Source: Rhizophagus irregularis
Taxonomy: Eukaryota
Length of the DNA: 64,000 nucleotides
Direction of reading: 5' to 3'
Assembly: GCF_026210795.1 (NCBI RefSeq)
Contig: NC_089432.1
Span: forward strand, 3,906,001 to 3,970,000
The translations under genes and the position numbers were made by a program. The notes beneath the pieces were generated by a model that did not search any database, was not told the origin of the DNA, and saw nothing but the letters and a program-made list of their open reading frames with translations. Shown here piece after piece: positions 16,301 through 62,250 of this stretch. Each line of letters starts with the position of its first letter. The first letter of the stretch is position 1.

Positions 16301-16493
16301 TTTCTTCTAATTTAGTTTGGCCATACATTTTAAGGCCATTAACATTAAAAGAAGAAATATTAAATGAGTTGGGGATAAAAGAAGTATTACTAGGAGAAGA
16401 AAATAACGATTCATGTGAAAAAATTTTAGTAGCATCATCAGGGTTGGGAGGGTTTCGTACAAAGGTGTCGTAATTAAAATTATTGTCCGACAT
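10330..16493 (-). pseudogene. LINE ORF2: AP endonuclease, reverse transcriptase, RNase H, C-terminal CCHC finger
   Basis: APE: SFNVNGL, GDFN, RVDYVW, SDHNPV. RT: RPITLLE, DISKAFDSV, QGEVISPLLW, FMDD. RNase H: SSRAEAAAI, YTDSQ, KIKAHSG..ND. Zn finger CRSC..EDLMHLFMC. Split by stops, frameshifts and the 11550 MITE. Confidence 0.93.
11550..12077. mobile_element. hAT-type MITE (528 bp) inserted in the LINE RNase H domain
   Basis: TIRs tagtgctccgcacgagcc / ggctcgtgcggagcttta. TSD aatggctg / aatacctg (6 of 8 match). Removal restores DSQT-AIDGLR. Dense gctcg/cgagc motifs and an internal inverted repeat at 11744-11803 / 11881-11942. Confidence 0.85.
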
Positions 16494-16542
16494 TAAAACA
16501 CAATGATAAAAACAGTCGGGGAGTAAAAATTAAAGAAGAAAA

Positions 16543-16797: not shown

Positions 16798-16849
16798 GGG
16801 GCAAGTAGGGTTGCAGACATTTCTTTTGCCAAGGGTAGTTACCTTACGG

Positions 16850-18070
16850 TGAGATCCCCCAATTCCCCCTGTCATCAATTTACAAGGTTGCCACATCGAA
16901 CGGGCATTCTCATGGTCGAACGAACGAATGAGCGAACAAACAAACGAACGAACGAGCAATCAAACGAACAAACACGTGATCAAAACATAATTAACGAACA
17001 ACAACATCAGCGAACAATATACAACAACATTCTTGGTTCACAAAATAAATAGCGTTAGCAATATAAAGCGTTGAACGGTATAAAATAAAATTAACTTCTC
17101 TGAATTTTCCTCAATTTATATCCACTTTCGATTTCAAACTGCGATAGCTCTCGCTACGAATTATTATCTTCCAAAGGTATATATTTAATTCATCTTAAAT
17201 TTTCATTAATTAAAATTAATTAATCAAACATTAATTAAAGTTTAGGGCGAACCTATTACCTTTAATTAATATTAAACTTCATTAATAATTAAAAAATAAA
17301 ACTTATATTTTATTGAGTTCTGTGGATGCGAACTATGGAATTACTTTGAATTCCGTTCTCTATATATACAATTCTTATGCTATTTTCTATTCTATCTATA
17401 TACTATCTTTTATGTTCTTTACATATTATCTTTGAACTATCTTTCTAATATACTATCTATATTTTAAATACGCTATCTTTTAATATGCTATCTTTTATAT
17501 TATTTTATATGTTATCTTTTCTATTATTCAAATATTACATCGCAAAGAAATAATTTATAACCCATCTTTTATGGCTGTGCTACCTTTTCTTTAAATAATC
17601 TTTCAAATATTATGTCGTAAAGATATAATTCGTCTTTTGTGGCTGTGTTATCTTTATATATGTTATCTTTTATATTCCATCTTTATGCCATCTTTTCATA
17701 TTATCTTCTATATTATTTTGTGTTCTCCAATCTTTCCGACATTATTTTATATATTCTTTTAATCCACTTTATGTGTTTCGCTCATAATCTACCTTTTGTG
17801 GCTTATAATTATTCTTTCTTGTCGTTCTCATTGTTAAAGATCGCTAAGCCGCAAATGATCGACTCTATTTATCCTATTGGTTCTTTGTCAATCATTCAAT
17901 AAATATTACATCATGTAGATCATTACTCTTCTTAAATGTTTATCCTTTTCGGCTAATTATTTATCCATCCACGCCAATCCACGATTAATTCGTTCGTTCT
18001 TAATACTTGATAATTACATTTGGTGGTTGAATTTTATCTTCTTTTCGTACTTGATATTTGGCCGTTTACA
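16850..18070 (-). repeat. 3' LTR of Gypsy element 1 (1221 bp)
   Basis: Direct repeat of 27238-28459; only a 1-nt indel noticed by eye. Confidence 0.95.
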
Positions 18071-18145: not shown

Positions 18146-19357
18146 CTAATTGAATCGAACTCGGGTCTTATCGAATACCTCTTTTCCTTTGATTACTATT
18201 TTTGGTGTAAATTCCCTTCGATCATAAAATTTCTTTAACCATTCTCCATTTTGTGGTGTTTTCAATATTCTTCCGTCTAATTCTTTGAGTTTATATGCTC
18301 CGTTTCCAAATTCTTCGTGAATTAAATATGGTCCTTTCCATTTGCTCTGTAATTTTCCAGACCATTGTTTCTCTCTCCATGCTTCATATAATAATACTTT
18401 TTCTCCTATTTCAAATTTAGGTTTTCTAATTCCCCTTTTGTCGTGTTGTTATTTTTCTTGAGCTTTTTTCACATTTTCTTTTATTTTTCTTCTTATTACT
18501 GGTAGCTCCTCAATTAGTATTTTTACTCTATTAGCTAACGTTATCTTGTTTTCATCTTTGTCTAATGGTAATTTCGCTCTCCTTCCGTACGTTGCATAAA
18601 AAGGTTTAATTCCTGTTGACGATTGCTTCTTTGTTCTGTATGCAAATAATACATGTTTATCCCAATCTTCTTCTCCTAATTTGGCTAATCCTTCGCATAA
18701 AGTTTTATTGAATCTTTCGACCAAACCATTTGTCTGTGGCCTATATGGTGTACTTAATCTATGATTTATCCCACATCTTTCTACTAATTCCTCCATCATT
18801 TTATTGTTAAAGTGAGTCCCTCTATCGCTAATTATTTTCTTTGGACATCCATGTCTACAAATTATGTCCCTCCAAATAAATTCTACTACCTCTTTTGCTG
18901 TAGCTTCTTTTAGTGGTGCGGCCTCGGGCCATTTTGTAAAATAATCCATTGCTACTACCATGTACTTATTTCCCTTTTCTGTCTCTTTTAACGGTCCAAC
19001 TATATCTATCCCAATCATCTCAAATGGTTCATTTATCTTTATTGGCGTTAATTCGTTCTTTCCTCTTGGTTTTCCTCTCATTTGACAATTCCAACACGTC
19101 CTTACATATTCTTCTACATCTTCTTTCATATTTTTCCACCAATAATTTTCTTTTATTCTATCTAATGTCGCTTCTATCCCAAAATGTCCTGATAATTCAT
19201 TATCATGCATCATGTATATCAATCCCTCGTATTCATAATCCCTGATTACTCTAAATCTGTTTTGTCCTTTTATTCTATATAAAATTCCTTCTTTCAATTC
19301 ATATTTATTCTCTTTTTCGATATTGTCAATTATTCTCTCATAATTATTTTCCTCCAT
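18146..19357 (-). pseudogene. Integrase as a separate ORF (HHCC, DDE, GPY/F), with one premature TAA at 18449-18451
   Basis: H...GHFG..CWNC; GIDIVGP; ISDRGTHF; LVERFN. The frame continues past the stop through KWKGPY to a TAG at 18146. Confidence 0.9.
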
Positions 19358-19416
19358 AATATTTCTTTAATTGATTCTACTTCTGAGTTTGTTATTTTCG
19401 TTATGTGTTCTATATT

Positions 19417-21498
19417 TTAGTTCTGTGCTCTTCTCCATTTTTCCACCTCTTTAAATACTTTTCTCCAACTACTATTGTCATTTTTAACTTTTACTCGACT
19501 GTATCTTTTGGTATCTTTATACACACTTTGATTTTCTTCAAACATTTTAACCATGTCCAAATATTCATCCTTCTTTAATGTTGGATATGATGATTTTTCC
19601 GTTTTCTTTGTTTCTCTTCCAATGTAATTTTCCCAACATACATTGCCATCTTTTTCTAAAAATATCACTATTGATTTATCTATTGTTTCTTTCAGTCTGA
19701 ATATTTCTTTCTCCATCTCATGATTTCCATGTGGAGTAATTAATCCTCTGTCAAAACTTTTCGTCTTTTGGTAATAATATTCACAATATGGTGATTTGTC
19801 CAAAATTATTATATCTGTATCTTCATCGTATTCTACCATTCTTCTATTTATTTGTTCCACTACTTCTTTTCTGAATTTCCATTCTGTATCCATCTTTGAT
19901 TCGTGAAATTCATCTTTATCTTTTCTTCTTCTTTTATAAGTATTGAATCTTACTTTTAATCCTTGTTCTTCCCATTCTTTAATTAAATTTTGTACTATAC
20001 TTGTTTTTCCCAATCCGTCTACTCCATCGATTATTACTATTTCTGGTTGTTCCTCCACTATCTTTAATAATCTACTTAGTGCGTCGGCGTTCGTATTTTC
20101 TTTTCCCGACCTATGTACTACTTCGAAATTATATTGCTGTAATTCCATTACCCATCTTGCTCTTCTTCCTTTCGGTATTTTTGCGTTCATTAATCCTTTT
20201 AATGCACTGTGATCTGTTATTACTTTAAATTTTCTATCGATTAAATACTTATGAAAATGTTGAATTCCCCAAACTATTCCTAAACATTCCAATTCTGTTA
20301 TCGGATAATTTTCTTCTGCTGGTAATAAACTTCTACTTGCATATGCTATTACTACTTCTTTTCCTTTTTCATCTTTTTGGCTTAATACTGCACCTAATCC
20401 TTTTCCTGATGCATCTGTTATTAATAAAAATTCTTTCTTCCAATCTGGATGTCGCAATATTGGATATTGTATTAACTTTTCTTTCAACTTTTCAAACGCT
20501 TCTTGTTGTTCTCTTCCCCAAATAAAAGGTATCCCCTTCTTTCTCAAATCGCTTATTGGTCTTGCTATCTTTGAAAAATTCTTCACAAATTTTCTGTAAT
20601 ATGAACAAAGTCCTAAAAATGATCTTACTTCTTTCACCGTTGTCGGTGCCTTCATTTCTTTTATCTTTTCTATCTTTTTATCGTCCGGCCTCAATCCATC
20701 ATTTCCTACTATATGTCCTAAAAATTCTATATTTCTTTCCAAAAATCTACATTTCTTTAATTTTATTATCAAATTATTCTCCTGTAACTTCTTTAATACT
20801 TTTTCCACATGTTCCATATGGTCTTTCAAATTTCCTGAATATATCATAATATCGTCAATATATACTACCACAAAATCATTTATGTATTCTTCTAATATTT
20901 CATCCATTAATCTTTGAAATGTTGCTGGTGCGTTCGTTAAACCGAATGGCATTACATTATACTCAAATAATCCCTTTGAACATACAAATGCTGTTTTTTC
21001 TTTGTCTTCTTCTTTCATTTCTACTTGATTAAATCCTGCTGCTAAATCTATGCTTGAAAACCATTTTGCTTTTCTATATTTGTCTAACAATTCATCCATT
21101 CTTGGTAAAGGAAAACTATCCATTATAGTTATCTTGTTTAACTTTCTGTAATCAATACAGAATCTATATTTTCCCGTTTTCTTTCCTGCTAATGTAACCG
21201 GTGAACTCCATGGACTTTTTGATTTTCTTATCCTTCCTTGTCTTAATAATTTATCTACTTCTTCGCTTATAAATTTTGCCTTTTCGTCTGTTTCCTTGTA
21301 TCTTCTTTGTTTTATCGGTTCTACTCCATCTTTTATTTTTATCTCATGTTGCGCCGCTTTTGTTCTCCCTTCTATTTCTTTGTCATATTCCAAAATATCT
21401 TGGTATTCTAATAATAATTTTACCATATTTTCCCAAATTGGTTCTTCTACTTTCCCTATACTTAATTTTTGCATAAATTTTTCACTTGGTTCGAGCAT
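19417..21498 (-). CDS. Reverse transcriptase-RNase H fused to a C-terminal thymidylate/deoxynucleoside-kinase-like P-loop domain
   Basis: RT: FCIDYRKLN, MPFGLTNAP, YIDDI. RH: TDASG, ELECLG, TDHSAL, ADALSR. Then ~208 aa with IVIIDGVDGLGKTS and IIILDKSPYCEYYYQ. Confidence 0.9.
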   Translation of the reverse strand: MLEPSEKFMQKLSIGKVEEPIWENMVKLLLEYQDILEYDKEIEGRTKAAQHEIKIKDGVEPIKQRRYKETDEKAKFISEEVDKLLRQGRIRKSKSPWSSPVTLAGKKTGKYRFCIDYRKLNKITIMDSFPLPRMDELLDKYRKAKWFSSIDLAAGFNQVEMKEEDKEKTAFVCSKGLFEYNVMPFGLTNAPATFQRLMDEILEEYINDFVVVYIDDIMIYSGNLKDHMEHVEKVLKKLQENNLIIKLKKCRFLERNIEFLGHIVGNDGLRPDDKKIEKIKEMKAPTTVKEVRSFLGLCSYYRKFVKNFSKIARPISDLRKKGIPFIWGREQQEAFEKLKEKLIQYPILRHPDWKKEFLLITDASGKGLGAVLSQKDEKGKEVVIAYASRSLLPAEENYPITELECLGIVWGIQHFHKYLIDRKFKVITDHSALKGLMNAKIPKGRRARWVMELQQYNFEVVHRSGKENTNADALSRLLKIVEEQPEIVIIDGVDGLGKTSIVQNLIKEWEEQGLKVRFNTYKRRRKDKDEFHESKMDTEWKFRKEVVEQINRRMVEYDEDTDIIILDKSPYCEYYYQKTKSFDRGLITPHGNHEMEKEIFRLKETIDKSIVIFLEKDGNVCWENYIGRETKKTEKSSYPTLKKDEYLDMVKMFEENQSVYKDTKRYSRVKVKNDNSSWRKVFKEVEKWRRAQN

Positions 21499-21533
21499 CT
21501 TTTCCGTCTCTCTCTCTTCAGAGCCAAGACTCT

Positions 21534-22046
21534 CTATTTAAAATTCTGGTGCATTTTGAATACCTCTCCCTCATCGTTACTTTCATATTTTTCATCGTCC
21601 TCACTCTCTTCGCTTTCATATATTGCTTCTCTTTCATATCCTACTGGGATCGTTATTATTTCTCCCTGTTTTTCTATCCTTAAGGTATGATCTTCGAAAT
21701 TTATTTTTGCATTATACAGCTTCCATATATCATTTCCCAAAATTAGATCCTCTTCTTCTGAATCTATTACTTCAACTTCTTTTAGTATCTCTAATTCATC
21801 TTCGTATCTTAAAGTTATATTTGCTTTTCCTAACGCTGCTATCTTTTGCCCATTTGCTATTGTACATCTAAATTTACTTTTTCCAAATATAGGTATATTC
21901 AATCTTCTTCTTAATTTATCTGTTATCACACTTACTGCTGCTCCGGTATCTATTATTACGCTCACTAATTGATCTTCAACTTCTAATTCTGTTCTCATTG
22001 CTGTAGTTTTCTTCTCTTCATTTTTCATAGTTCCCACCGAGTGTAG
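21534..22046 (-). CDS. Aspartic protease (retropepsin), in frame with gag after its TGA
   Basis: IIDTGAAVSV and LILGND motifs. Confidence 0.9.
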   Translation of the reverse strand, partial: LHSVGTMKNEEKKTTAMRTELEVEDQLVSVIIDTGAAVSVITDKLRRRLNIPIFGKSKFRCTIANGQKIAALGKANITLRYEDELEILKEVEVIDSEEEDLILGNDIWKLYNAKINFEDHTLRIEKQGEIITIPVGYEREAIYESEESEDDEKYESNDEGEVFKMHQNFK

Positions 22047-25000
22047 TCAATTTTTTTCGTTTATACTTCTTGGTCTATATGTTGCTTCTCTCAATTGTTT
22101 ATGATACTTAGGATTCCCATTTATTAATTGTCCATATGTTATATTCGCTCTACAATTTTTCACATCCCCTACAATATCATAAGGTGGTATTCCGTCAGTT
22201 AATCTTGGTCCATACTCCCTGGACTTCATTGGTCCTCCTGCTTCTCTCCATTTTCTTAGTCCTTCTGTTGGGTCATAATAAGCTTGCCTTTTATTACTCC
22301 ATCTCATTCCTTTTGGTCCTATTGGTCTATCCCCATTTTGTTCAGTTCGTTCAGGTATATAATTTGGTGCTGTCATACCAGTTGGTATTTCTCTATCATC
22401 CATTCTATTTCCTGCTTCTCTTAATTCTTCCTGTAAATTTCCCTCTTCATTATTATTTTTATATCCCACTATTGGACTCGTCCTTCTTGATTGTCTTCTT
22501 CCTTTTACTGCGTCATCCTTTGCGTATAACTCATTATGATAATTTAATTCTCTATCTTCATAATCATCGTAATAGCCTTGTGCATAATATACTTCGTTAT
22601 ATTGTGGATCCTCGTATCCATATTCATCATAATAATATTCTTCTTGATCATCATATTCGTCCATCATATTTACTCTCGCATTCCTTCCTTCGGGACAATT
22701 ATTCTTGTAATGCCCCATTCTATTACATCCGAAATACGTTGGTACCCTATTCTGGTTTGATTGATAACTATTCCTATTACCATTATTTAATCTCCTTCCC
22801 ATATTTGGTTGATACCTATCCCTATTATCGTTGTTTAATCTTCTCTCCATATTTGCTACCATTCTTTCTAATTTACTAATTTTCGCCTTCTCTTTAAACA
22901 TTTCAGCTAATTCGTCCTCATAATTTTCGTTCAATGGTTTTGCGAACATATTTTGTCTATTGTCATCTTTTCCGATATCTATTTTCGTACTAATTGGTGT
23001 TCCTATTGCTTTTCTTAAAAATTCGTCTTTTGCACCTTCTTCTCTTACTGCTATTTCTATCGCCCCATTTAAGTTCGCTGGATTCTGTCTTCTAACTTGA
23101 TATCCTATTGTTGGTTCTAATCCTTCGATGTAAAAATCTACTTGATATTCATCTGCTAATGCATGTCCTCTAGTTGCTATTCTTAATATTTGTCTAAATC
23201 TTCTTGTATATTCTTCAACACTTTCATTTGTTCCTTGTCGAGTTTTTCTTAATTCTAGCATTTTCTTTCTTCTAACATCCTCTCTGGTAAATCTTCTTTT
23301 TATTCTATGCTTTAAATCATTATCATTATCTGCATCTGCCCAATTCACTAAGTGACCTGCATTTACTTCTTTCATTTCATTATACCATTGCGCTGCTGCT
23401 CCTCTTAAATGTGCTGCTGCGTATACCGCTTGTCTTACGCCATTAGCTCCCGCTGCTTTTCCGACTGCTGCAAATGCTACCTCGAATTGTCTAACCCAAT
23501 CAGTAACATCTTCATCTTCTCTTCCATAAAAGAGTGGTATACTAATTGTTCCTCCTGCTTCATTTCCTGCATTTTCGATCCTATCTATCAAACTTCCTCC
23601 TGCTCCTACTGCTGCGTTCAAAGTATTAGCCGGATAGCCTAAAGCGTTCTCTAACACTCTCCTTACTTGGTCCTCAGTTGCCATATTCAATATATTCTCT
23701 TGAAATAAATCTTGTAAATTGTAATCAGATAATTCACTTTCGTTGTCAGAATTTTTAATATTTAATGAACTATTCGTATCTGAATTTTGACTTAAGTCGC
23801 TATCCCCTCTATTTATAACATTTTCAACTTCATCTTCAAACTCTTCTTCGTTAAAATTTTCAATATCTTCATCCCATCTTTCATCCGGACTTAGTATTTC
23901 TCCAATCTTTTCTGAATCATCTGTATTATCTTCTTCTGATTCTTCATTATCGCTTCTTTCACCACTTTCTTCACTATCTATTATTCCCGCTTGTTCTTTC
24001 AACAACTTATCTAATTTTTTCTTCAATTCTTTTTCCGACTCATCTTTATTTTCTTGAAAGATTTCAATGAATTCTTTATCTAAAATTTCTCCATCTGTAT
24101 ATCCCATACTAGTTAATCTCAACAATTCTTCTTCAGTTATTATTGTTCCAATATCTTCAAAAATCTTCTGTAATCTTTTTACCCGATCATCAATTTCATC
24201 GATATTTTCTTCTTCACAATCTTTGCATACCATTCCTCTTACTCTAGACATATCATCCATCCATCCTAATCTAAACATATCATTCATCCATCTTATTTCG
24301 CATCTTTCGCACCAAGTTGTATTCTGGTTTAACCACTTATGAATTTCTTTTCTTAATTCTTTATCTTCCAAATCTATCATTTCCATATATTCTTCCACAA
24401 ATTCTTTAGTTACTATTATTCGATTATTTACCCCAAAACTCTTCATTCTTTGAATTTCTGACACATCTATTTCATATCCCAATTTTTCTAAGTTGTTTCT
24501 TAATTCTATTAGCTCATCTTGTTCATTCTTCTGCGCTTCTTTAACACATTCCCCGCATTCGCTATCCGCTTCGTCCATTTCGAACCTTCTATTACCACAT
24601 TTTTCACATCTTATTGTTTCTTTTTCTAACCATTCTTTTATCCTCAATTCTTTTTCCCTTTCATCCAATTCCTCTATCTCTTGAATTTTATCCATAAATA
24701 TTCTCGTTACCAATATATCCATTTCTATCATCAACTTTATTCCTATCTTCCAAATGTACCTCAGTTGATCTTCATCCATAACATTTGACCTTCTTCTTAA
24801 TTCACTAAATTTCCATGATTTATCTCCTATTATTATCTCTAATTCTTCCTTGGAATCATTTTCCAATTCGTAACTTGCTGGACTATCTTCACTTTCTGAA
24901 TCTTCTGGTTCTTTTGTAAATCCCCTAGTATCTATAAATATTCTTATTATCTTTTGCATCATATTCTTGTGATATTCGTGAACATTTTCTATATGTATGT

Positions 25001-25568
25001 TCTCATATTCTATTTTGGACATTAGTTCCTTTACTTTCTCCCCATTCATAGCTATTCCTTCTTCTTCATATAGTAACTCCCTAAACGTCTCTATTGCTCC
25101 TGTCTTTACTCGTAATGGTCCAATTTCTTTTGATGTGATTCTATACCATTGCCAAAATTTCTCAAACCTTCTTTCAACATCCCAATCTTCCAAAATATAT
25201 TTGTGTTCTATTAATTCAGGATTTCCAATTAATCTATCAAATACTTCATTCCCCAGATTTCTTTCAATACAGTCTCTTACAATTACTAATATAATCGTTC
25301 GTAATCCCCTTTCTTTCATTTTTGGTTGTATTCTATATCTTATTGATTCCGTTATTCTATCCATTATGTCTCTACATTTCCCTTTATGTATTGTATCTTC
25401 CCTTTCTGAATTATTCATACTTAATAAATCTAATACTCCCTTAATCGTTACGTCATTGTATATTATTATTGCATCTTCAAATTTAAATAACGCGTCCCAA
25501 AATTTCTTGAATACTATTGGTTCATTTACTATTGGATAACATAATTCACAATTTAAACATTCATCCAA
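22047..25568 (-). CDS. Gag with a ~630-aa acidic, CxxC-containing N-terminal extension
   Basis: IPLFYGREDEDVTDW; HLRGAAAQWY; MHR-like QGTNESVEEY; degenerate knuckle YFGCNRMGHYKNNC. True start uncertain. Confidence 0.85.
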   Translation of the reverse strand: MDECLNCELCYPIVNEPIVFKKFWDALFKFEDAIIIYNDVTIKGVLDLLSMNNSEREDTIHKGKCRDIMDRITESIRYRIQPKMKERGLRTIILVIVRDCIERNLGNEVFDRLIGNPELIEHKYILEDWDVERRFEKFWQWYRITSKEIGPLRVKTGAIETFRELLYEEEGIAMNGEKVKELMSKIEYENIHIENVHEYHKNMMQKIIRIFIDTRGFTKEPEDSESEDSPASYELENDSKEELEIIIGDKSWKFSELRRRSNVMDEDQLRYIWKIGIKLMIEMDILVTRIFMDKIQEIEELDEREKELRIKEWLEKETIRCEKCGNRRFEMDEADSECGECVKEAQKNEQDELIELRNNLEKLGYEIDVSEIQRMKSFGVNNRIIVTKEFVEEYMEMIDLEDKELRKEIHKWLNQNTTWCERCEIRWMNDMFRLGWMDDMSRVRGMVCKDCEEENIDEIDDRVKRLQKIFEDIGTIITEEELLRLTSMGYTDGEILDKEFIEIFQENKDESEKELKKKLDKLLKEQAGIIDSEESGERSDNEESEEDNTDDSEKIGEILSPDERWDEDIENFNEEEFEDEVENVINRGDSDLSQNSDTNSSLNIKNSDNESELSDYNLQDLFQENILNMATEDQVRRVLENALGYPANTLNAAVGAGGSLIDRIENAGNEAGGTISIPLFYGREDEDVTDWVRQFEVAFAAVGKAAGANGVRQAVYAAAHLRGAAAQWYNEMKEVNAGHLVNWADADNDNDLKHRIKRRFTREDVRRKKMLELRKTRQGTNESVEEYTRRFRQILRIATRGHALADEYQVDFYIEGLEPTIGYQVRRQNPANLNGAIEIAVREEGAKDEFLRKAIGTPISTKIDIGKDDNRQNMFAKPLNENYEDELAEMFKEKAKISKLERMVANMERRLNNDNRDRYQPNMGRRLNNGNRNSYQSNQNRVPTYFGCNRMGHYKNNCPEGRNARVNMMDEYDDQEEYYYDEYGYEDPQYNEVYYAQGYYDDYEDRELNYHNELYAKDDAVKGRRQSRRTSPIVGYKNNNEEGNLQEELREAGNRMDDREIPTGMTAPNYIPERTEQNGDRPIGPKGMRWSNKRQAYYDPTEGLRKWREAGGPMKSREYGPRLTDGIPPYDIVGDVKNCRANITYGQLINGNPKYHKQLREATYRPRSINEKN

Positions 25569-27223
25569 TTCTTCCGTTCCTAATTCGTGTTCTTCTTTAT
25601 GTGTTCTATATTTGCTTTCCCATTGATGGTATCATTCCATTGTATGCTTTAGTTAAATTGCTATGAATATCCATCCAGAATCTCAATCGGATTCCTCTCT
25701 CTATATATATATATTTCACTCTTATCATTTCTATTTTTGATCTTCTAAACATTCTTTCATCTTTAAATAGATTACTTCTTTTAATCTTAGATTCCATCTT
25801 TCGGTTCTATATATTTACTTCGTCATATTTTACTATTAATTTTTGCTGCGCCTCGAAATTTCAAAAATTTTTCTAAGTCCACGATCTCCTCAGGCTGCGG
25901 AGGTTTTTTACTGCGCCATAAAATTTATCTTTTATCACCGATTTCCCTAATTTCACATGTCACATCTTTTCGTCACCGTGATTCATAGTTTCACTTATCA
26001 CCTCTTTTTGTCACATCTTTTTGTCACATCTTTTTGTCACCAAGATCCATAATTTCACATATCACAAACTTTATGAAAATTTTGGAATTTTAAGGTTTGC
26101 GAATTTCCAATCTTTCTTATCGTCCACATAAATCCTTCTTACTATATATTCTATATTATATAAATTAATCTATAACACACAAAATATCGTTCTTTTCAGA
26201 TAAATGTCTTTCTTTTCAAATAAATGTTCTTTTTCAAATAAATGTCCTTCTTTTCGGATTTTACTCTATTATTAAATACTGCACGTAATGTTCATTATAC
26301 GGCTCGTTAATGTGTAAATATCCTTCTATTTTTTTCTTCTTTTAACGGAACATTGTAATGAAAGCGTGAACTAGGACACTACACCAGGAACCCTCATCTG
26401 AAATGTAGCCTAGGACCTGTAACAATACAACGTATCCGTCTTTTCCTCCTTCGTTGGCCGACTCATCTCTTAACGGGTGAATCTAATCTTCCGAAATCCA
26501 GTTTCAAAAGTCATCAGCTACCCATAAAACTCATCTAAACCAACTTTCTTAAATTGGTGGACCTATACTGAGCTTATCTCTATCTTTTACCCGCTGGAGA
26601 TACCCCACATTGAAATAAAAGCACGACAGTTTTCAGGTTTGTCCCATTTTATCCATCCAATGTTTCTTGATAGTAGGTGTCTTTACAATTTTCATTCCCC
26701 GTCCCCAAAGCAATTCACGTGTTATTGAGCTGGGTATCCAGATTTGACGTAACCCATACGTTATAATCTTTAATGTCGAAGAATAAAAATTTTCCAATCT
26801 CGAGCATTTATCCAAAATCCAAACTCAGAGGTAACCCATACCACACAGATGAACCCCGGATAATACATTGGTGTTCTCCCATTATTAATCTTTATTTCAA
26901 AATCCATCTTTCACTTCCACATCTCCTTATGAAATTTCTCAGGTACTTTATTCCCGAAAGAAATATTCTTGTGCTTTCTATCGATTAAATGATTACTTGC
27001 ACAACTTCAAACTTCAATCTTTCACCTTTTCAAGTTTTTAACTCGATTAAATCCTTGTTGATTTATTGGTTCCTTTTGAACTCGTCAAAACCTGAAATCT
27101 AAAAATAAATTCTAAAATAAAATATTGATTAATAATACCTATCAGTGACTTACTAACGAAATTAAATTTTCATATTCATTATAATAATAATAATCATGTG
27201 ATGATGATCATTTCCTTTCTTGC

Positions 27224-27237: not shown

Positions 27238-28459
27238 TGAGATCCCCCAATTCCCCCTGTCATCAATTTACAAGGTTGCCACATCGAACGGGCATTCTCA
27301 TGGTCGAACGAACGAATGAGCGAACAAACAAACGAACGAACGAGCAATCAAACGAACAAACACGTGATCAAAACATAATTAACGAACAACAACATCAGCG
27401 AACAATATACAACAACATTCTTGGTTCACAAAATAAATAGCGTTAGCAATATAAAGCGTTGAACGGTATAAAATAAAATTAACTTCTCTGAATTTTCCTC
27501 AATTTATATCCACTTTCGATTTCAAACTGCGATAGCTCTCGCTACGAATTATTATCTTCCAAAGGTATATATTTAATTCATCTTAAATTTTCATTAATTA
27601 AAATTAATTAATCAAACATTAATTAAAGTTTAGGGCGAACCTATTACCTTTAATTAATATTAAACTTCATTAATAATTAAAAAATAAAACTTATATTTTA
27701 TTGAGTTCTGTGGATGCGAACTATGGAATTACTTTGAATTCCGTTCTCTATATATACAATTCTTATGCTATTTTCTATTCTATCTATATACTATCTTTTA
27801 TGTTCTTTACATATTATCTTTGAACTATCTTTCTAATATACTATCTATATTTTAAATACGCTATCTTTTAATATGCTATCTTTTATATTATTTTATATGT
27901 TATCTTTTCTATTATTCAAATATTACATCGCAAAGAAATAATTTATAACCCATCTTTTATGGCTGTGCTACCTTTTCTTTAAATAATCTTTCAAATATTA
28001 TGTCGTAAAGATATAATTCGTCTTTTGTGGCTGTGTTATCTTTTATATATGTTATCTTTTATATTCCATCTTTATGCCATCTTTTCATATTATCTTCTAT
28101 ATTATTTTGTGTTCTCCAATCTTTCCGACATTATTTTATATATTCTTTTAATCCACTTTATGTGTTTCGCTCATAATCTACCTTTTGTGGCTTATAATTA
28201 TTCTTTCTTGTCGTTCTCATTGTTAAAGATCGCTAAGCCGCAAATGATCGACTCTATTTATCCTATTGGTTCTTTGTCAATCATTCAATAAATATTACAT
28301 CATGTAGATCATTACTCTTCTTAAATGTTTATCCTTTTCGGCTAATTATTTATCCATCCACGCCAATCCACGATTAATTCGTTCGTTCTTAATACTTGAT
28401 AATTACATTTGGTGGTTGAATTTTATCTTCTTTTCGTACTTGATATTTGGCCGTTTACA
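27238..28459 (-). repeat. 5' LTR of Gypsy element 1 (1222 bp)
   Basis: Direct repeat of 16850-18070. Confidence 0.95.
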
Positions 28460-28745
28460 ACGGCATACGTCACGTCAAGATACAACATATGCTGTAACAC
28501 AAGAAAAAAAAATTTTTCATATCAAACCTACTTAAACCTACTTGTAATGATCAATTACTACAGTAATTGCCATACTTAATTTTGGCTGAAAGTACAATTT
28601 GGCTAGAGTTAAAATTAAAATTACTACCTTACTACCCCATACGTCAATACGGCAAAATATTTGAAAAGTAGTATCTTCTTACTACATTGACATATTGACG
28701 TATAAGGTAACTACCTTAAGATATGTCTGCAACCTTAGAGGCAAG

Positions 28746-31040: not shown

Positions 31041-31049
31041 GTAGCAGTG

Positions 31050-42517: not shown

Positions 42518-42523
42518 CTTATT

Positions 42524-52953: not shown

Positions 52954-53527
52954 TGTGACACGCCACCCATAGGACATTAAAATAAAATATCGTATGTTGC
53001 CACCGACGTGTTGAGTTCGTGTAGTCTCTATGCTTGGTTTAAAATAAAAATTAGTTACAAAACATTAATAAACCATTAATTAAAATAATTAATGTGGCAC
53101 TTTTTACTCATAAGAAAAAGGCAAAAAGAATGTGTTAGTTTTTATTAAGGGCGAATTAAAAATTTTTTATTTTTCTAAAAAATTGAACTCTGGAATTTCC
53201 TATCGAAATCCACTTGTATTTATACATTTTAAGAAAATCATTTCTACTATCTACTACTTTTTCTCTATTAAAATTCTAAGAATAATAAGAAATAAAAGAT
53301 GTATTATCATATGACTTTCTCGTTACACTAAACTAAACTATAAATATAATTTTATTGGCTAATTATTTATCCATCGGCTAAATATTTATCCGTCACTTAC
53401 TGCGCCATGTGACTTGTCACGTGACTTTTGTATTCCCAACTGTTTCTTCTTGTGTAACCATATCATGTGACCTACTGCGCCACAGGATTTACTGCGTCAT
53501 TTATCTATTATATTTTCGGTTATTACA
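52954..53527 (-). repeat. 3' LTR of element 2
   Basis: Direct repeat of 61677-62250; about five transitions seen by eye. Confidence 0.95.
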
Positions 53528-53596
53528 TTTATCCTCCTCTTGAAAAATTTATGTCCCATAAATTAATTTAAGAATCGAATTCGGGTCTCAAACATA

Positions 53597-54820
53597 TTAT
53601 ATTACTATATATGGTTCAAATATTTCTCTATCAAAATATTCTTTTAATAATTCTCCATTTACTGGTCTTCTTAAAATTCTTCCATTTAATTCTTTAATTT
53701 TGTATGATCCATTTACTATTATTTCATGTATATAATATGGTCCTTTCCATTTTTCTTCTAGTTTTCCTGTATGTGTTTTGTATTTTGCCGCATCAAAATA
53801 TAATACTTTATCTCCTATTTGAAAGTTTTGTTTTCATTTTCCAATTTTGTCATGATATTTCTTCTGTTGTTCTTGTGCTTTTTCAATATTCTTCTTCGCT
53901 TCATATCTTTTTATTGGTAATTCTTCTATTATATGTTCTATTCTTTTAATCATTGTAATTCCTTTAACTTCTTCATCATTCGGTAATATTACTTTTCTTC
54001 CATAAGTTAAATAAAATGGTGTCATTTTACTTGATTTCTGTATTTTACTTCTATATGCAAACAATATTGGTGCTATTCTTTGATCCCAATTTTTATCTTC
54101 ATATTCTCTATTTCTATATATCGTTAATTTTTCTTTTACTAATTTCGCCAATGATTCTATTAATGTTTTATTAAATCGTTCTACTAATCCATTTGTTTTA
54201 GGGTGATAAGGAGTTGAGAATTTATGTTGAACATTAAATTTTTCTGTAAGATCTTTAGTTAATTGATTATTAAATTCCGATCCGTTATCTGTAAGTATTT
54301 TCTTTGGACATCCATGTCGACAAATTATTTCTTCATAAATGAATTTTGATATTTCTTTTGCATTTGCTTCTTTTATTGCTTTTGCTTCTGGCCATTTCGT
54401 AAAGAAATCTATTGCTACTACTATATATTTATTTCCTTCTTCTGTTCTTGGTAATGGTCCTATTACATCTATTCCAATCATATGAAAAGGTTCTTTTACT
54501 TCTATTGGATGTAATTCATGTAACCCTTGTGGATTATTTCTTCTTTGACAATTATCACAACTTTTTACATATTTTTCTACATCTCGTTTCATATTCTTCC
54601 ACCAATATTTTTCCTTTACTTTTTCATATGTAGCTTGAATTCCAAAATGTGCTGATAATTCATGATCATGCATCATATACATTATTCCTTCTAATTCAAA
54701 TCTTCTTATTATTCTAAATTTATTTTCATCTTTAATTTTATATAAAACTCCATTTTCTTGTATGTATTTTTCTTCTTTTTCTATATTCTTTAAAATTTTA
54801 TCATATTCTTTTTCATCCAT
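53597..54820 (-). pseudogene. Integrase as a separate ORF; frameshift near 53834 before the GPY/F region
   Basis: HDHELSAHFG..CDNC; GIDVIGP; LTDNGSEF; LVERFN; downstream KWKGPY in another frame. Confidence 0.9.
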
Positions 54821-55013
54821 TTGTTAATAAATTTTCTATTTCGTTTTCAAATGGTAAAATAAATTTTATTTCTTTATCTTCAAATAATACGCAATGATAA
54901 TTTATATTTGTATGAATTATAAATATATATATTTCTAATCCTATTCTTTCAATCATTTTTTTTTTTATCTCGTTATTCATTACTATTTATTATTTTCTAA
55001 ACTTTTATCTTTC

Positions 55014-56441
55014 TCATATTAACCTTGACATCGCATCAGCATTCTTATTTTCTTTTCCTGGTTTATGTATTATCTCAAAATCATATTGTTGTAATTCCAT
55101 CATCCATCTTCCTCTTCTTCCTTTAGGAACTTTTGATGTACTTATAAATCCTTTTAATGCTGCATGGTCTGTTATTACTTTAAATTTTCTTCCAATTAAA
55201 TATTTATGAAAATATTTTATTTCCCAAAATACTGCTAAACATTCTAATTCTGTTATCAGATACCTCTTTTCTGCATTTACTAAACTTCTACTTGCATAAC
55301 TAATAACTATTTCTCTATTATTTTCATCTAATTGTTCTAATATAGCTCCTAATCCTTCTCCTGATGCATCTGTTATTAATATAAATTCCTTTTCAAAATT
55401 TGGATGTTGTAATATCAGATAATTTATTAATTTTTCTTTTAATTCTTCTAATGCTTTTTGTTGTTTATCTGTCCATACAAAAGGAACATTCTTTCTCGTT
55501 AATTCCATTATTGGTTTTACTATTTTTGAATATCCTTTCACAAATTTTCTATAATATGAACATAATCCATTTATTTCTCTTACTTGTTTGATATTCTTTG
55601 GCGGTTTTAAATTTTTGATCTTTTCTATTTTCTTTTCATCTGGTTTTAATCCATCTGTTCCTACTATATGTCCCAAATATTCTACATTCCTTTTCGCCCA
55701 TTCACATTTCTTTAACTTTAACATCATATTCGCCTTTCTTAATTCTTCTAATACTATTTTTATATGTTGTAAATGTTCATTCCAATCTTTCGAATATATT
55801 ATAATATCATCTATATATACGTTCATAAATTTATCTAAGTATTCTTTAAATATTTTATTCATTGTTCTTTGAAATATTGCCGGTGCATTTTTTAATCCAA
55901 ACGGCATAACATTAAATTCATATAATCCTTGACTACAAATAAATGCTGTCTTTTCCTTATCTTCTTCTTTCATCTCTATTTGCCAATATCCACTTGCTAA
56001 ATCAATTGTTGTAAACCATTTTGCTACTCTAAATTTTTCTAATAAGTCGTCTATTCTTGGCAAAGGATATGCGTCTGTTATCGTCATTTGATTTATTTTT
56101 CTAAAATCTATACAAAATCTTTTATCTCCTGTCTTCTTATTTACTATTACTACTGGTGACGACCATGGACTACATGATTCTTGTATTATTTCTTCTTTTA
56201 ACATTTTATCTATTTCTCTTTTTATTATTTCTCTATTTTCTGTACTTTCTCTATATGCTTTTTGATTTATTGGCATTTCATCTTTCAACCTTATATTGCA
56301 TTTTACTATATTTGTTTTACTTATTTTCTTATCCCCATATATACAAATATCTTCGTATTCTTTAACTAAATCTTTTAATTCTTTCTCTTGTAATTTCTCT
56401 AAATCTTTATATTTTATTTCATCTGTCCAATCTTTGTGCAT
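55014..56441 (-). CDS. Reverse transcriptase-RNase H (no kinase extension)
   Basis: FCIDFRKIN; MPFGLKNAP; YIDDI; TDASG; TDHAAL; ADAMSRLI*. Confidence 0.93.
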   Translation of the reverse strand: MHKDWTDEIKYKDLEKLQEKELKDLVKEYEDICIYGDKKISKTNIVKCNIRLKDEMPINQKAYRESTENREIIKREIDKMLKEEIIQESCSPWSSPVVIVNKKTGDKRFCIDFRKINQMTITDAYPLPRIDDLLEKFRVAKWFTTIDLASGYWQIEMKEEDKEKTAFICSQGLYEFNVMPFGLKNAPAIFQRTMNKIFKEYLDKFMNVYIDDIIIYSKDWNEHLQHIKIVLEELRKANMMLKLKKCEWAKRNVEYLGHIVGTDGLKPDEKKIEKIKNLKPPKNIKQVREINGLCSYYRKFVKGYSKIVKPIMELTRKNVPFVWTDKQQKALEELKEKLINYLILQHPNFEKEFILITDASGEGLGAILEQLDENNREIVISYASRSLVNAEKRYLITELECLAVFWEIKYFHKYLIGRKFKVITDHAALKGFISTSKVPKGRRGRWMMELQQYDFEIIHKPGKENKNADAMSRLI

Positions 56442-56473
56442 CTTTAATGTCTCTCCATTATTATGGCCAAGAC

Positions 56474-57029
56474 CTAATAGTTTTCCTCTATGATATGTCC
56501 TTTTTCTTCATTATTTATTAAATATATTTCTCGTTCACTTGTTTCTTCATATTCATTTTCACTATTTTCATCTTCACTATCATCACTATCATTATCGTCA
56601 TTAATATTTCTGTCATTATTTTCATATTCTATTGGTATTTCAATATCTTTTTCATCTTCTCTTAATATTAATATCTTTTCATTATAATCTATTATTCCTT
56701 TCTTTTCTCTTAACACATCATTTCCTAATATTAATTCTTTCTCTACTGATTCAATTACATCCCATTTCTGTGTTTTCATTTACTTTTATTGTTATTTCTA
56801 TTTTTCCTTTTGATGCAACTCTTGTTCCGTTAGCCATTATAAATCTAATATCACTCTTTTCTATTATTGGAATATTTAATTCTTTTCTTAATTTATCTGA
56901 TATTAAACTGACTGATGCTCCTGAATCTATTATTATTGATACTAATTTTCCTTTTATTATAACTTCACTTCTCATTGCTCTAGTTTCACTTTTATTATCT
57001 GCACTTTTTATTTGTTGGTCTGAGTGTAG
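56474..57029 (-). pseudogene. Aspartic protease with one internal frameshift
   Basis: IIDSGASVSL in ORF 56975 and LILGND in ORF 56779. Confidence 0.85.
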
Positions 57030-60000
57030 TCATGCATTATCATCTTCATCATAATTTCTAGCTATTCTTCTAAATTTTGGATTTTCATTGTAAATTTGTC
57101 CATATGTTATATTTGCTTTTTCATTAAACATATCCATTACATATTTTTCTGGTGGTACATTAACTCGTACTCTAATATTTTTATTTCCTCTTTTCATTCC
57201 TGGATTTGGACATTCTCTTATAAAATGACCTGTTAATCCACATCTTTCACATCGGTTATGTCTTCTTCTCGATTGATATGCTCTATCTCTATCTTCTTTA
57301 TTAGAAAATCCTCCTTTTCTTTCACCATCAATATCCATTTTCATATCATATTCTCTTTTGGTGGTATTGGGACATCTTCAATTTCCATCTCATTATAGTC
57401 ATTATCTAAATCTCTTCCATATTTTCTACCGCTTCTTAAAGTTGGAAATATTTCTTTTTCATAATTATATATTTCGTGATTATTATAATATTCATTATCA
57501 TTATATCCTTTATTATCATAATATCTTTCGTGATCCATTAAATTTATATTTCTATTATTATTATTATTTCTTCTTTCATTATTATTCCTATTAAAATTAT
57601 TTTGCGTTCTATAATTATTTCTTCGTCTTAATTGTGGACATTCTGGTCTTATATGACCTTCTTCATTGCATTCATAGCATCTCATAATTCTTGCATTTCT
57701 TGTATTTGTGTTTCTATTTATATTTCTTCTTTGTTGATTTTTTATCTCATTTAACCTTTCTTCCATAGCTATTTTTTCTGCTCTAAATTGTTCTAATGCT
57801 TTGCTTAATTCATCAATATCTTTTTCATTAACTGGCTTTTGCATCTTTCTATATATTTCATTTTCTTCTTTTTTATTCGTTTCTTCTTTTAAAATTTCTT
57901 CTATATTCTTTTCTTGTCTTATTTGTTCTATATTTACACCCGTTATTTTCATCATCAATTCATTTTTAGCTTCTTCTTCTCCTCTTGCTGTAATAATTGC
58001 ATCACTTAAATTTGTTGGATTACTTCTTCTAACTTGGTACCCCAATGTAGGTTCTAACCCTTGAATATAATAATTTACTTGATACATATCGTGTAATGCT
58101 TGACCTCTAGTTGCAATTCTTAATATTGACCTAAATCTTCTAATATATTCTTCAACACTCTCATTTTTTTCTTGTTTAATCCTTGTCAATTCTATCATTT
58201 TTCTTCTTTTAACATCTTCTCTAGTGAATCTATTAATTAATTTATTTTTCAAATTTCTATCATCATTATGATCACACCAGTTTACTAAATTAGCTGCTAC
58301 TCTTTCTTTTTCTTCATTATACCATTGTAATGCAGTTCCTCTTAAACATGTTATTGCTACATTTGCTTTATTTTGTCTACATATACCTCCTCCAACATTT
58401 CCTTCTGTTCTTCCACTTACTGTAAATGTTACTTCAAATTGTCTAATCCAATCGTTAACATCTTCATCTTCTTTTCCACTAAAAGTTGGCATACCTACTA
58501 TTCCTCCCATTCCTGCAGTTTGAATTCTATCTAATAAAGTTTGTCCTGCTCCTAATGCATTATCTAATGCATTAGGTGCGAGTCCTATAGCATTTTCTAC
58601 TATTCTTCTCATTTGTGCTTCTGTTGCCATGTTTAATAATATATTTTCCTGTAAATTATAATCAGATAGTTCACTTTCTGTATCAGAATTTTCAATATCA
58701 GAATCCTTAATATTCAACAAATTATTCGAATCTGAATTTTGACTTAAGCCAGAATCTTCTGTATTTATAATATTTTCATCATTATTTCCAGTTTCATTCT
58801 CATTGAAGTCTTCAGAATTTCCTTCCCAAATCTCATGTTCTTCTGGATCTAATATTTCTCCAATCTTTTCTGAATCATCTGAATTATCATTTTCTTCTTC
58901 ACTCTCTTCAATCTCGAATTTCTTTAAGTACTCATCCAATATTCTCCTTATTTCCCTTTCTGATTCATTTTTATATTCTTGAAATTTTCTTATAAAGTCT
59001 GCACTTAATATATCAACATCTCTATATCCCATACTTATTAATCTTAATAATTCTCCATCAGAAACTTCAATTTCTAAAACTTTAATTAAATTTCTTAGCT
59101 GTTCTAATCTTTTCTCCATTTCCGTTTCATCATCCAATTTATTCTCGTCTTCCAAATTTTCTGGTCCTTTTTCATAACAACTTTTACATATCTTTTCTAT
59201 AAATTCTTCATTATATTCTACCGCTTCTATTGCTTCTTTCTTTAATATTATTTTATTGCACATTGGACATTCTCTCGTATACATATAATGCCATATTTTT
59301 AATTCTTCTTCTATTCCTTTATCACCTAATTCTTCAATAGTTTTGTAAAAACTCATAAATTCTTTAGTCTTCATTATTTCATATTCCACTCTGAAATTTA
59401 TTATTCGTCTTATCTCTTCAATATCAATTTCATAACCATTCTCTAACCAATAATTTCTGTATGTTCTTTCTATATATTCATCTCCTTCATTCGAACTTAG
59501 TTCTCCCGCATCATCTGAACTTTCCAGTTCTCCTACATCACTTTGTTCTTCAACAAAACCTTTTGCCTCTACAATTTTCCTTATTATTTTATCTGTTATA
59601 TCGTCATTTGTCCATGGTCTCAGGTATTTATTTCCATCCCACCATTGATATGTTATACTTTTCTGAAACTTCCTGACTTTCTCTCTATTCTCTTCTTCTA
59701 CTATATTTTCTTCTAAATGCAATATTTCCTTGAAATATCTCATAGTACCATATCCTTTGTTTTTGATGGTTATTGATTCTGTCTTTTCTAACCATTCTTC
59801 AAATTTTGCAAATCTTATATCCAATTCATCATCTTCTATAATATATCTATATGTTAACAATTCCCTATTTCCTAATAGATTCTCTTCTGTTCGATCGTCT
59901 AATATAAACTCATTATCTTCACTCAATATGTAATGTTCACAGATCACTTTTATCACTGATATAATTCCCATTTTTCTGTAATCTGATTTATTTCTATACC

Positions 60001-60352
60001 TAATTGACCTTACAACTATATCTAACAGTTTTTCCCCTTCTTTTCTTATTTTTTCAAATTCTCTATTTCTTTTCTTTTTACTAGATGGATAACTTTCTTC
60101 CCCATCCTTTCTTGTTAGTATTATATATTCCATTAATTTTACATATGTATTTCTGTTATAACTCATCGCTTCTAATATTACTTTTTGAAAAATCTTCCAA
60201 AATCTTTTAAACCAATCTTCTATCTCTATTTCATCAGTACTATAACATTTTAGACATGAAGGGTCCACTTGATATTCTTTTCTTAATTCATTATGTTTCT
60301 CTATTTCATGTCTATTCTTAATCTCTTCTAACTCATCGTATATATCAGACAT
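57030..60352 (-). pseudogene. Gag with long acidic N-terminal extension and two CCHC knuckles; frameshift near 57342
   Basis: MPTFSGKEDEDVNDW; CLRGTALQWY; QEKNESVEEY; CYECNEEGHIRPEC; CERCGLTGHFIREC. Confidence 0.88.
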
Positions 60353-61366
60353 TTTTTATTTACTTAAACATTTCATAATTTCACTTTTATTTATATTTTA
60401 TAAAATTTTATCATCATTTAGATTACTATTTTATCTTTTACTTCTTTTAAAATACAATTTAAATTTTAATATTTTCAAAGTTCCAGCTTTGATTCTATAC
60501 TTTCTTTATACATTCTATAATATAATTTATAATTTATAATCGCGATTTTATTTATAAACTTTCTATATCTTGCGCAAATAAACTGTGATCAAGGCTAGGG
60601 ATTATTTATAACTGGGGCCACCCAGTATCAGACTAATATGATCACTAACAAAGGCTTATTTATACTGGGTCCTCCCAGTGTGCTCTTATTTATACTGGGG
60701 TTCTCCCAGTTTTATATACGAAATTAAACTTTTTAATAACTCTTAATCTTTTTCTTATATTAACTTCTAAAATATTTATTTCAACTCTATTTCATATTAT
60801 TTTACTTCTCACATTTCATTTTGTTTACGCAACATGCTTACATAATTTCTTTTATTATATTATTTTATTTCATATAATTCATTATTATCTTTTATAATCT
60901 TTCATATCATTCTTTTTATCGTAATAAAATTATTTCTCATATATTAAATAATAACATTTCAATATTTCTCATATTTACAATATCTTTTAATTTTCTCTTT
61001 CATTTAGTAACCTGTACCGGGCTTGCCTTTACCTTCTTCATAGAAGTATAGTAGTTTACGGGTTTGTTACTAATAACTTTTCTTTTCTTATAATACTTTT
61101 CAAATTTTTCAATCATTTATTAACTTTTTATTATTCACAAAATTCATTCTCATTATAAATTTTTATTTTCATTCAATTTTAAATCTTTTCATTATTATCT
61201 TGAATATTTCATTTATCTTTTCGATATATACTTTTTCAATATATTGTATATTTTCATTTCTCATATATTCTGTAATATTCCTTTTTCATAATATTACTTT
61301 TACTATATCTTTTTCATATATAGTAACATTTTTCTCATATTTCAGATAAGTCTTCTTTATCTTATC

Positions 61367-61566
61367 ATTTCTTTGATGATTTCACATATCATCCTTCCTT
61401 TCTTATATTTCTTTGATGATTTCACATATCATCTTTCCTTTCTTATATTTCTTTGATGATTTCTCATATCATCTTTCCTTTCTTATATTTCTTTGATGAT
61501 TTCTCATATCATCTTTCCTTTCTTATATTTCTTTGATGATTTCTCATATCATCTTTCCTTTCTTAT
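61367..61566. repeat. 40-bp tandem repeat, 5 copies, in the element 2 leader
   Basis: ctttgatgat recurs at 61371, 61411, 61451, 61491 and 61531. Confidence 0.93.
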
Positions 61567-61660
61567 TAATTTCACAAATTTTTCTTTCATTTTCTCATAT
61601 ACTTTTCTTTTATTTCTCATTTAGATCTTGTATGAAGACAACAATCTTTTATTTTCTCAT

Positions 61661-61672
61661 GAGCATGCACCA
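61661..61672 (-). promoter_or_regulatory. Primer binding site TGGTGCATGCTC, element 2
   Basis: 4 nt from the 5' LTR; identical to the element 1 PBS. Confidence 0.88.
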
Positions 61673-61676
61673 AAAA

Positions 61677-62250
61677 TGTGATACGCCGCCCATAGGACAT
61701 TAAAATAAAATATCGTATGTTGCCACCGACGTGTTGAGTTCATGTAGTCTCTATGCTTGGTTTAAAATAAAAATTAGTTACAAAACATTAATAAACCATT
61801 AATTAAAATAATTAATGTGGCACTTTTTACTCATAAGAAAAAGGCAAAAAGAATGTGTTAGTTTTTATTAAGGGCGAATTAAAAATTTTTTATTTTTCTA
61901 AAAAATTGAACTCTGGAATTTCCTATCGAAATCCACTTGTATTTATACATTTTAAGAAAATCATTTCTACTATCTACTACTCTTTCTCTATTAAAATTCT
62001 AAGAATAATAAGAAATAAAAGATGTATTATCATATGACTTTCTTGTTACACTAAACTAAACTATAAATATAATTTTATTGGCTAATTATTTATCCATCGG
62101 CTAAATATTTATCCGTCACTTACTGCGCCATGTGACTTGTCACGTGACTTTTGTATTCCCAACTGTTTCTTCTTGTGTAACCATATCATGTGACCTACTG
62201 CGCCACAGGATTTACTGCGTCATTTATCTATTATATTTTCGGTTATTACA
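61677..62250 (-). repeat. 5' LTR of element 2
   Basis: Direct repeat of 52954-53527. Confidence 0.95.

Follow-up and report, generated by a model that had tools for sequence, protein, structure and literature searches.

Retroelements are thought to depend on the deoxynucleotide pools of their hosts, and to our knowledge the captured nucleotide enzyme known from them is dUTPase, a hydrolase. Non-primate lentiviruses encode the dUTPase between RNase H and integrase, and the enzyme is important in non-dividing cells (PMC4531489). In LTR elements of fungi, rotifers and planarians the dUTPase is located between protease and reverse transcriptase (PMC6431247, PMC5408684). Other enzymes captured by Ty3/Gypsy elements are an AlkB m6A demethylase in orchids (PMC9289625) and DEDDy and GDSL ORFs in rotifers (PMC5408684). 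Proteins that combine a NUDIX hydrolase with a deoxynucleoside kinase (dNK) have been described in Diversisporales (subfamilies C and F), together with NUDIX proteins carrying retrotransposon domains in Glomerales (subfamily K), and the accessible part of that work draws no link from the kinase to retroelements (PMC12210691). A recent Gypsy expansion in Rhizophagus irregularis has been reported in a preprint on transposable elements, whose available text mentions protein kinases only (10.1101/2021.03.30.436303). The word 'kinase' does not occur in the available portions of PMC6431247, PMC5408684, PMC3248453, PMC13465315 and PMC9289625, and a literature search, with most subscription journals, Repbase and GyDB outside its scope, found no description of a kinase in a retroelement.

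The window analysed, a stretch of 64 kb of R. irregularis DNA, includes a Ty3/Gypsy element (element 1) with a predicted nucleotide kinase encoded between RNase H and integrase, which belongs to a real, conserved and apparently so far undescribed family. Like the lentiviral dUTPase, this kinase is a captured nucleotide-pool enzyme in pol and occupies the same slot (PMC4531489). Unlike that hydrolase, it is predicted to be anabolic, has an unrelated fold and is often encoded by its own ORF, with the integrase translated separately. As in the orchid AlkB and the rotifer DEDDy/GDSL elements, a lineage-specific enzymatic cargo has been kept across subfamilies, whereas the enzyme class is another one and the cargo lies inside the pol region instead of at the 3' end (PMC9289625, PMC5408684).

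Element 1 and its kinase-less sister

27238..28459, minus strand: 5' LTR with TG...CA ends, followed in the element sense by a TGG primer-binding site; target duplication ACGG at 28460-28463
22047..25631, minus strand: Gag, a long ORF with a Ty3 capsid domain (Pfam)
21534..22046, minus strand: aspartic protease frame, continuing the Gag frame after a TGA-CTA stop
20062..21537, minus strand: Ty3-like reverse transcriptase and RNase H, sharing one ORF with the kinase; first Met at 21498
19417..20061, minus strand: P-loop kinase domain with a predicted TMK/dNK fold, forming the C terminus of the RT-RNase H ORF; stop at 19417-19419
18449..19366, minus strand: integrase in its own ORF; first Met 59 nt past the kinase stop
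16850..18070, minus strand: 3' LTR, preceded in the element sense by a polypurine tract; target duplication ACGG at 16846-16849
52954..62250, minus strand: sister element (element 2) of the same family, kinase absent; LTRs of 574 bp that are 99.1% alike, target duplication CCAC
About 54820-54990, minus strand: small hydrophobic ORF of about 50 codons in the sister element; it follows the kinase in five relatives

Element 1 is a young Ty3/Gypsy (Metaviridae) LTR retrotransposon. Its two LTRs differ by one 1-bp gap only, the 4-bp duplication ACGG is found on both flanks, and all the LTR hallmarks of Metaviridae (TG...CA ends, target duplication, primer-binding site and polypurine tract) are present. 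The domain order is that of the same family, Gag-protease-RT-RNase H-integrase with Ty3-like RT and capsid in Pfam; the best solved relative of the RT was the Ty3 enzyme (E 3e-105, the next family reaching 5e-71) and the RNase H in ORF 19417-21537 was recognised by Pfam at E 1e-37. A single continuous Pol polyprotein is usual in Metaviridae, though it is no universal trait. In element 1 and in the soil locus L040, protease, RT-RNase H(-kinase) and integrase lie in separate frames, and the integrase starts with its own Met in every locus where it was matched. Because the integrase is a separate ORF, the kinase forms the end of the RT protein and stands outside any continuous Pol.

The first-pass annotation of this DNA had noticed that the RT-RNase H frame goes on past ADALSR (20088-20071) for about 208 residues. 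The extension is there, running to the stop at 19417-19419, and its length had been put a little short, since the minus-strand ORF 19417-21537 encodes RT, RNase H and then 217 residues past ADALSR. The motifs pointed out at that stage (IVIIDGVDGLGKTS, IIILDKSPYCEYYYQ and SIVIFLE) are all found in the ORF translation, and the corresponding sister ORF does end at ADAMSRLI, as had been read.

The integrase of element 1 has a premature stop ahead of its C-terminal domain and lacks 9 nt that reads of other copies contain, so that this copy is probably defective despite its recent insertion. The 9.2-kb interior is covered by 97 and 119 poly(A) reads only, out of 11 million; element 1 is thus nearly silent in the poly(A) RNA runs examined. 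The Gag stop (22047-22049 in element 1, where the context is TGA-CTA) is followed by an in-frame L-H-S and the protease, and the same arrangement is present in the sister element. Readthrough of this stop into the protease is probable in both elements, with TGA-CTA in element 1 as a readthrough context.

The RNase H of the sister element is 63-77% identical to those of kinase-bearing elements, which is inside the range of these elements among themselves, and a search for a kinase remnant in its spacer gave nothing significant (p 0.77-0.98). The RT tree places the sister among kinase-bearing elements with an SH-aLRT of only 86, and loss of the kinase is therefore graded as likely at most. The sister transposed recently without a kinase of its own, though perhaps helped in trans. 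A conserved hydrophobic ORF of about 50 codons, without a Pfam match, is located directly before the integrase in L034, L035, L037, L039 and L050.

A kinase position conserved across the family

A search near the length of the domain recovered 72 homologs among 147 candidates and a search of longer proteins 44 among 561; RNase H domains were present in 34 of these 44 and integrase domains in 7 more, counts of multi-domain homologs that may be affected by fungal gene models in which ORFs are merged through false introns. Altogether more than 100 homologs were found, with identities down to 33%, and those with a species name come from Rhizophagus irregularis (up to 98% identical), R. clarus, R. 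diaphanus and Glomus cerebriforme. The earlier reading of the domain as captured cargo of an LTR element with many family members is upheld by these 72 and 44 homologs and by the soil loci described below, and several Rhizophagus proteins annotated as 'thymidylate kinase-like' can now be re-annotated as transposon cargo. No Gigaspora or Diversispora protein was among the named homolog matches, and subfamilies C and F of PMC12210691 are therefore probably another lineage, set apart by the species of the named matches. Both pair NUDIX with a nucleotide kinase and are encoded by multi-copy genes of arbuscular mycorrhizal fungi, and NUDIX domains are also described within retrotransposon proteins (PMC12210691).

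Among 27 soil metagenome loci, 5 were of the NUDIX type described further below and 22 were not. RNase H upstream and/or integrase downstream of the kinase was found in 20 of the 22, the other two being short contigs. Of the 175 proteins inspected, 37 join the RNase H end to the kinase in a single chain; the linkers have 15-16 or 85-94 residues, apart from one of 56 residues and four that could not be measured. Element 1, L030, L033, L035, L039 and L040 have the kinase fused to RNase H; in L028, L052 and L053 it is a separate ORF, and a frame change also occurs in L032, L036 and L042. It is the kinase's position, flanked by RNase H and integrase, that is conserved, and the fusion is variable; the fusion, to which the first-pass annotation had given the main weight, loses this role because several relatives have the kinase as a separate ORF.

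In 15 of 17 loci the ORF that follows has its ATG between -19 and +3 nt from the stop of the kinase, and the junction often reads ATGA or TAATG. This packing suggests coupled translation from one polycistronic RNA. The entire family appears to be polycistronic, with stop-start overlaps between ORFs. In L031 an F-box ORF (670-1086, Pfam E 2e-5) is placed between kinase and integrase, with its start overlapping the kinase stop, and the slot therefore accepts other cargo too.

Selection was estimated as Nei-Gojobori dN/dS with bootstrap ranges, some dS values being close to saturation. The kinase of element 1 gave 0.073 (0.034-0.131) against L033 and 0.068 (0.030-0.127) against L040, and the core domains gave similar values (RNase H 0.041 and 0.061, respectively, integrase 0.076 and RT 0.041). 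In the unsaturated kinase pairs (45 of 190) the median was 0.185 (0.046-0.449), with 0.23-0.30 for the core domains. After the coverage filter 26 loci remained, of which 25 had an intact kinase and one had a stop in it. The dN/dS comparison proposed at the outset thus points to purifying selection, about 0.07 among close relatives and comparable to that on RNase H and integrase, and the fusion is shared by many proteins (37 of 175). A neutral passenger or chance read-through in one copy, to which the Pfam score below threshold could lend some colour, is refuted by this dN/dS of about 0.07, by the intact frames at 25 of 26 loci and by the more than 100 homologs, the most distant of them at 33% identity, and its probability is negligible.

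It is also very improbable that the kinase is kept for the benefit of the host or as a non-catalytic structural addition, the element being a mere carrier. The kinase-less sister would fit such a role, as would a cassette that seems to have been swapped between subfamilies: the protein P0124 is a mosaic whose RNase H is 92% identical to that of P0129 and whose kinase is 89% identical to that of element 1, and P0123 is also mosaic, which suggests cassette exchange or possibly an artefact of the gene models. Against a passive role, the P-loop Lys is retained in 45 of 46 sequences, selection matches that on RNase H in strength, the same slot is always used in mobile and recently active elements, and almost no transcript of these copies is present in the poly(A) runs. 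Selection on the kinase on a par with RNase H, throughout a Ty3 lineage, suggests that retrotransposition in arbuscular mycorrhizal fungi is limited by the supply of precursors, a limit that the element would bear a cost to lift.

Predicted fold, motifs and candidate substrate

20002..20028, minus strand: P-loop DGVDGLGKT; Asp15, Gly18 and Lys19 almost invariant
19924..19944, minus strand: basic motif N-T-Y-K-R-R-R after strand 2; N40, K43 and R46 in 49 of 49 sequences
19768..19800, minus strand: DKSPYCEYYYQ, counterpart of DR..S..YQ in thymidylate kinases (TMKs); D88, K89, Y92, Y97 and Q98 in 49 of 49 sequences

The profile PHROG 761 ('thymidylate kinase') covers kinase residues 7-209 at E 2e-13 and was matched by 17 of 17 members of alignment A2. 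The scores were below threshold with Pfam Thymidylate_kin (PF02223; 20.7 for a cut-off of 27 bits) and with the NCBIfam TMK model TIGR00041 (19.7 for a cut-off of 83.25), and the Pfam cut-off was passed by 2 of 12 homologs scanned. The HMM comparison advised in the first-pass annotation was therefore successful with the PHROG profile and reached Thymidylate_kin only below its cut-off. Searching the PDB by sequence brought up designed PPR repeats and FtsY P-loops, which are no guide to identity, and was set aside.

An AlphaFold model of the domain, built from a 49-sequence alignment, had a pLDDT of 92.8 and a pTM of 0.89. Human dGK (2ocp; Z 15.9, rmsd 3.2, 197 aligned residues), Staphylococcus aureus TMK (4dwj; Z 15.8, rmsd 3.2, 184 aligned) and Giardia dAK (8puu; Z 15.3, rmsd 3.7, 198 aligned) tied as the best structural matches, in agreement with Foldseek, followed by NadR, NDUFA10-like and AbmG kinases (Z 13-14) and by adenylate and uridylate kinases (Z 12.3 or lower). 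The thymidylate/deoxynucleoside-kinase-like nature first proposed for the domain thus agrees with the predicted model (Z 15-16), which has an NMP-kinase fold of the TMK/dNK type; the model accommodates both the TMK and the dNK fold, and a predicted fold cannot tell dNMP kinases from nucleoside kinases. In fold, P-loop, motif order and length (about 205 residues) the domain is like the type II/bacterial-like TMKs (PF02223) and the dNKs (PF01712), including those of large DNA viruses, and differs from them in its 8-19% structural identity, in DK where they have DR or ER, in KRRR after strand 2 and in forming a separate clade. It is placed outside both families in the strict sense and is predicted to act like them.

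The P-loop of TMKs is xGxDGxGKT/S with Asp, and their DR motif carries Arg; dNKs have a catalytic Glu after strand 2, an ERS motif with ERSxxSD spacing and an NI pair in the P-loop. The kinase domain has the TMK-type P-loop, with D15 in 44 and K19 in 45 of 46 aligned sequences. DKSPYCEYYYQ aligns with DRSFISTLAYQ of a phage TMK, and Lys replaces the Arg of TMKs family-wide (124 DK, 1 EK and 0 DR among 125 motifs matched). This change, which had initially been suspected to alter or abolish activity, is no sign of decay, because the Lys is fixed across the kinase family. As judged from the alignment of sequences, the domain has N-T-F/Y-K-R-R-R and DKS in place of the Glu after strand 2 and the ERS motif of dNKs. 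The residues invariant in 49 of 49 sequences are N40, K43, R46, F63, R64, D88, K89, Y92, Y97, Q98, R105, W143 and R149. The N-T-Y-K-R-R-R motif is a putative phosphate-acceptor site, in a tentative mapping of the active site drawn from sequence alignment and the motifs of TMKs and dNKs.

The reading that we favour, with a probability of about 0.55, is that the kinase gene between RNase H and integrase in this Ty3/Gypsy lineage of Glomeraceae encodes a dNMP kinase, which would raise the precursors for DNA synthesis by the element. The phosphate acceptor would be a monophosphate (dNMP to dNDP), because the family combines the TMK-type P-loop Asp with invariant Lys/Arg residues at the site after strand 2 that in dNKs is taken by the catalytic Glu. 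The alignment of its YQ-ending motif with that of TMKs also speaks for a dNMP kinase. The enzyme would be made together with RT from one polycistronic RNA, either as an RT fusion or by termination-reinitiation, and the increased supply would serve reverse transcription or repair at integration. A dNMP kinase yields dNDPs only, and host NDP kinase would therefore still be needed for the triphosphate; since the host would complete the triphosphate, the benefit would be a local or cytoplasmic pool and not a self-contained supply in the particle. A fused kinase would travel with RT, and as packaging of a kinase from a separate ORF is not assured, action inside the particle is not required. Several observations count against a dNMP kinase: the Arg of the TMK DR motif is replaced throughout by Lys, the scores are under the Pfam and NCBIfam TMK cut-offs, the kinase-less sister inserted recently (LTRs 99.1% alike), and the element interior is almost without poly(A) reads. 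In yeast, higher dNTP levels gave no more Ty1 cDNA, and an effect on recombination was described (PMC3002893), a result that also counts against it.

A salvage kinase that converts deoxynucleosides (or other nucleosides) to dNMPs is considered unlikely. Giardia deoxyadenosine kinase was the top Foldseek match and dGK tied for the best Z, weak matches to the Pfam dNK profile were found in P0088, P0101 and P0018, DKSxYxE is similar to the ERSxxSD spacing of dNKs, and NUDIX+dNK fusions are reported from Diversisporales (PMC12210691). These likenesses are countered by N-T-F/Y-K-R-R-R in place of the Glu after strand 2, by a P-loop that carries Asp instead of the NI pair, and by the NUDIX-fused homolog described below, whose best 13 Foldseek matches were all TMKs.

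Rather unlikely as well is an action on unusual nucleotides or nucleic acid ends, that is, on modified or chain-terminating nucleotides as a counter-defence, or binding of RNA or DNA ends through KRRR. Family-specific invariants (KRRR, FR, DKSPY, R105, W143 and R149) do differ from canonical TMKs, the presumed ancestral partner is a NUDIX hydrolase, an Mrr-like nuclease adjoins in L044 and L047, and weak matches to a PHROG polynucleotide kinase were obtained in 3 of 17 sequences; however, polynucleotide kinases were absent among the best 50 structural matches. We know of no defence target in this system, which also counts against such an action.

Proposed origin from NUDIX-kinase fusions, and other elements

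The more distant homologs (33-46% identity) combine NUDIX with the kinase in one fusion (P0146, P0088, P0096, P0172 and L044). In the model of P0146 (pLDDT 80.7), residues 44-189 are matched by NUDIX structures and residues 190-393 by TMKs. Many of the LTR-element kinases begin with an extension of 50-60 residues, the last 30 of which match, in register, the 30 residues of the NUDIX C-terminal segment that precede the kinase (6 of 6 sequences tested, p 0.0003-0.02); the anchored segment scored above every other segment in each of these six. Without anchoring, an HMM test gave a weak result for the NUDIX remnant, with 5 of 14 sequences at or under 5 of 200 shuffles. The element 1 subfamily, in which the extension is absent, is a derived clade (99/98). 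In the tree, the kinase family forms one side of a long branch (100/100) separating it from six generic TMK/dNK rows, and the NUDIX lineages sit on long branches at its unresolved base, for which reason the direction of transfer is taken from the remnant and not from the tree. The kinase would thus descend from a NUDIX-kinase fusion in which NUDIX was lost stepwise, being first kept as a remnant and then deleted in the element 1 subfamily.

An endobacterial or viral donor had been envisaged in the first-pass annotation, and the donor searches turned up no close bacterial, phage or giant-virus relative. A GTDB genome scan gave 18 pattern matches, none of them confirmed, which weighs little against an endobacterial donor because a single motif was used. 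Searches with the family motifs, the L047 RT and the L047 kinase gave no match, and tblastn against phages found none for the kinase domain of element 1 and 8 at E 0.2-0.9 for P0146. HHalign gave a probability of 9% to the TMK of phage ACP1 and of 96% over 81 columns to the TGBSV TMK, and every BFVD structural match was 8-19% identical. The 26 IMG/VR loci retrieved (E 3e-7 to 1e-3) were rejected, the five translated resembling ordinary DR-type TMKs. An unrelated viral contig (L002, about 7560-8680) encodes a fusion of NUDIX with a TMK of the canonical DR type; the pairing of NUDIX and kinase thus recurs independently.

The kinase family also leads to a large RT element that is apparently undescribed. 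L047 (1-13947), a soil contig of 13.9 kb with all ORFs on one strand, encodes an RS-rich protease-like protein, a divergent RT-RNase H, several unknown ORFs, a NUDIX-kinase, an Mrr-like nuclease, a coiled coil and a zinc-knuckle Gag-like protein, the last of these downstream of pol; in L044 the NUDIX-kinase is likewise paired with an Mrr-like nuclease. L048, L049 and L051 are 96-99% identical to L047, its RT was found on 28 contigs (the longest of 19,064 nt), and clusters of 71-128 members belong to this type of element. No integrase was detected in L047-type contigs with an integrase profile built for this analysis (control L040, E 3e-194), the L047 contig being incomplete. It is a possibility, though a doubtful one, that RT elements in soil fungi maintain a nucleotide metabolism of their own, as large DNA viruses do, in which case the nuclease and NUDIX-kinase of L047 would scavenge nucleotides from host DNA and the Ty3 lineage would have taken the kinase, trimmed NUDIX and joined the kinase to RT. 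If true, an anabolic nucleotide enzyme would here be seen in a retroelement for the first time, and reverse-transcribing viruses of a so far undescribed group would be indicated.

The window carries further mobile elements and repeats. A Polinton/Maverick-like element with long terminal inverted repeats extends over 34603-50257 and includes a Pox_A32 ATPase (43956-45191) and an integrase with a chromodomain (48186-49316). LINE-like endonuclease and RT ORFs (13236-16529, minus strand) adjoin the 3' LTR of element 1, and a Helitron-like Rep/PIF1 helicase ORF lies at 3693-6344. Near-perfect hairpin-type inverted repeats are located at 30743-31043 and 33164-33440 (arms of 136 and 129 nt, loops of 19-29 nt), and a tandem array with a 50-bp unit occupies 8829-9655.
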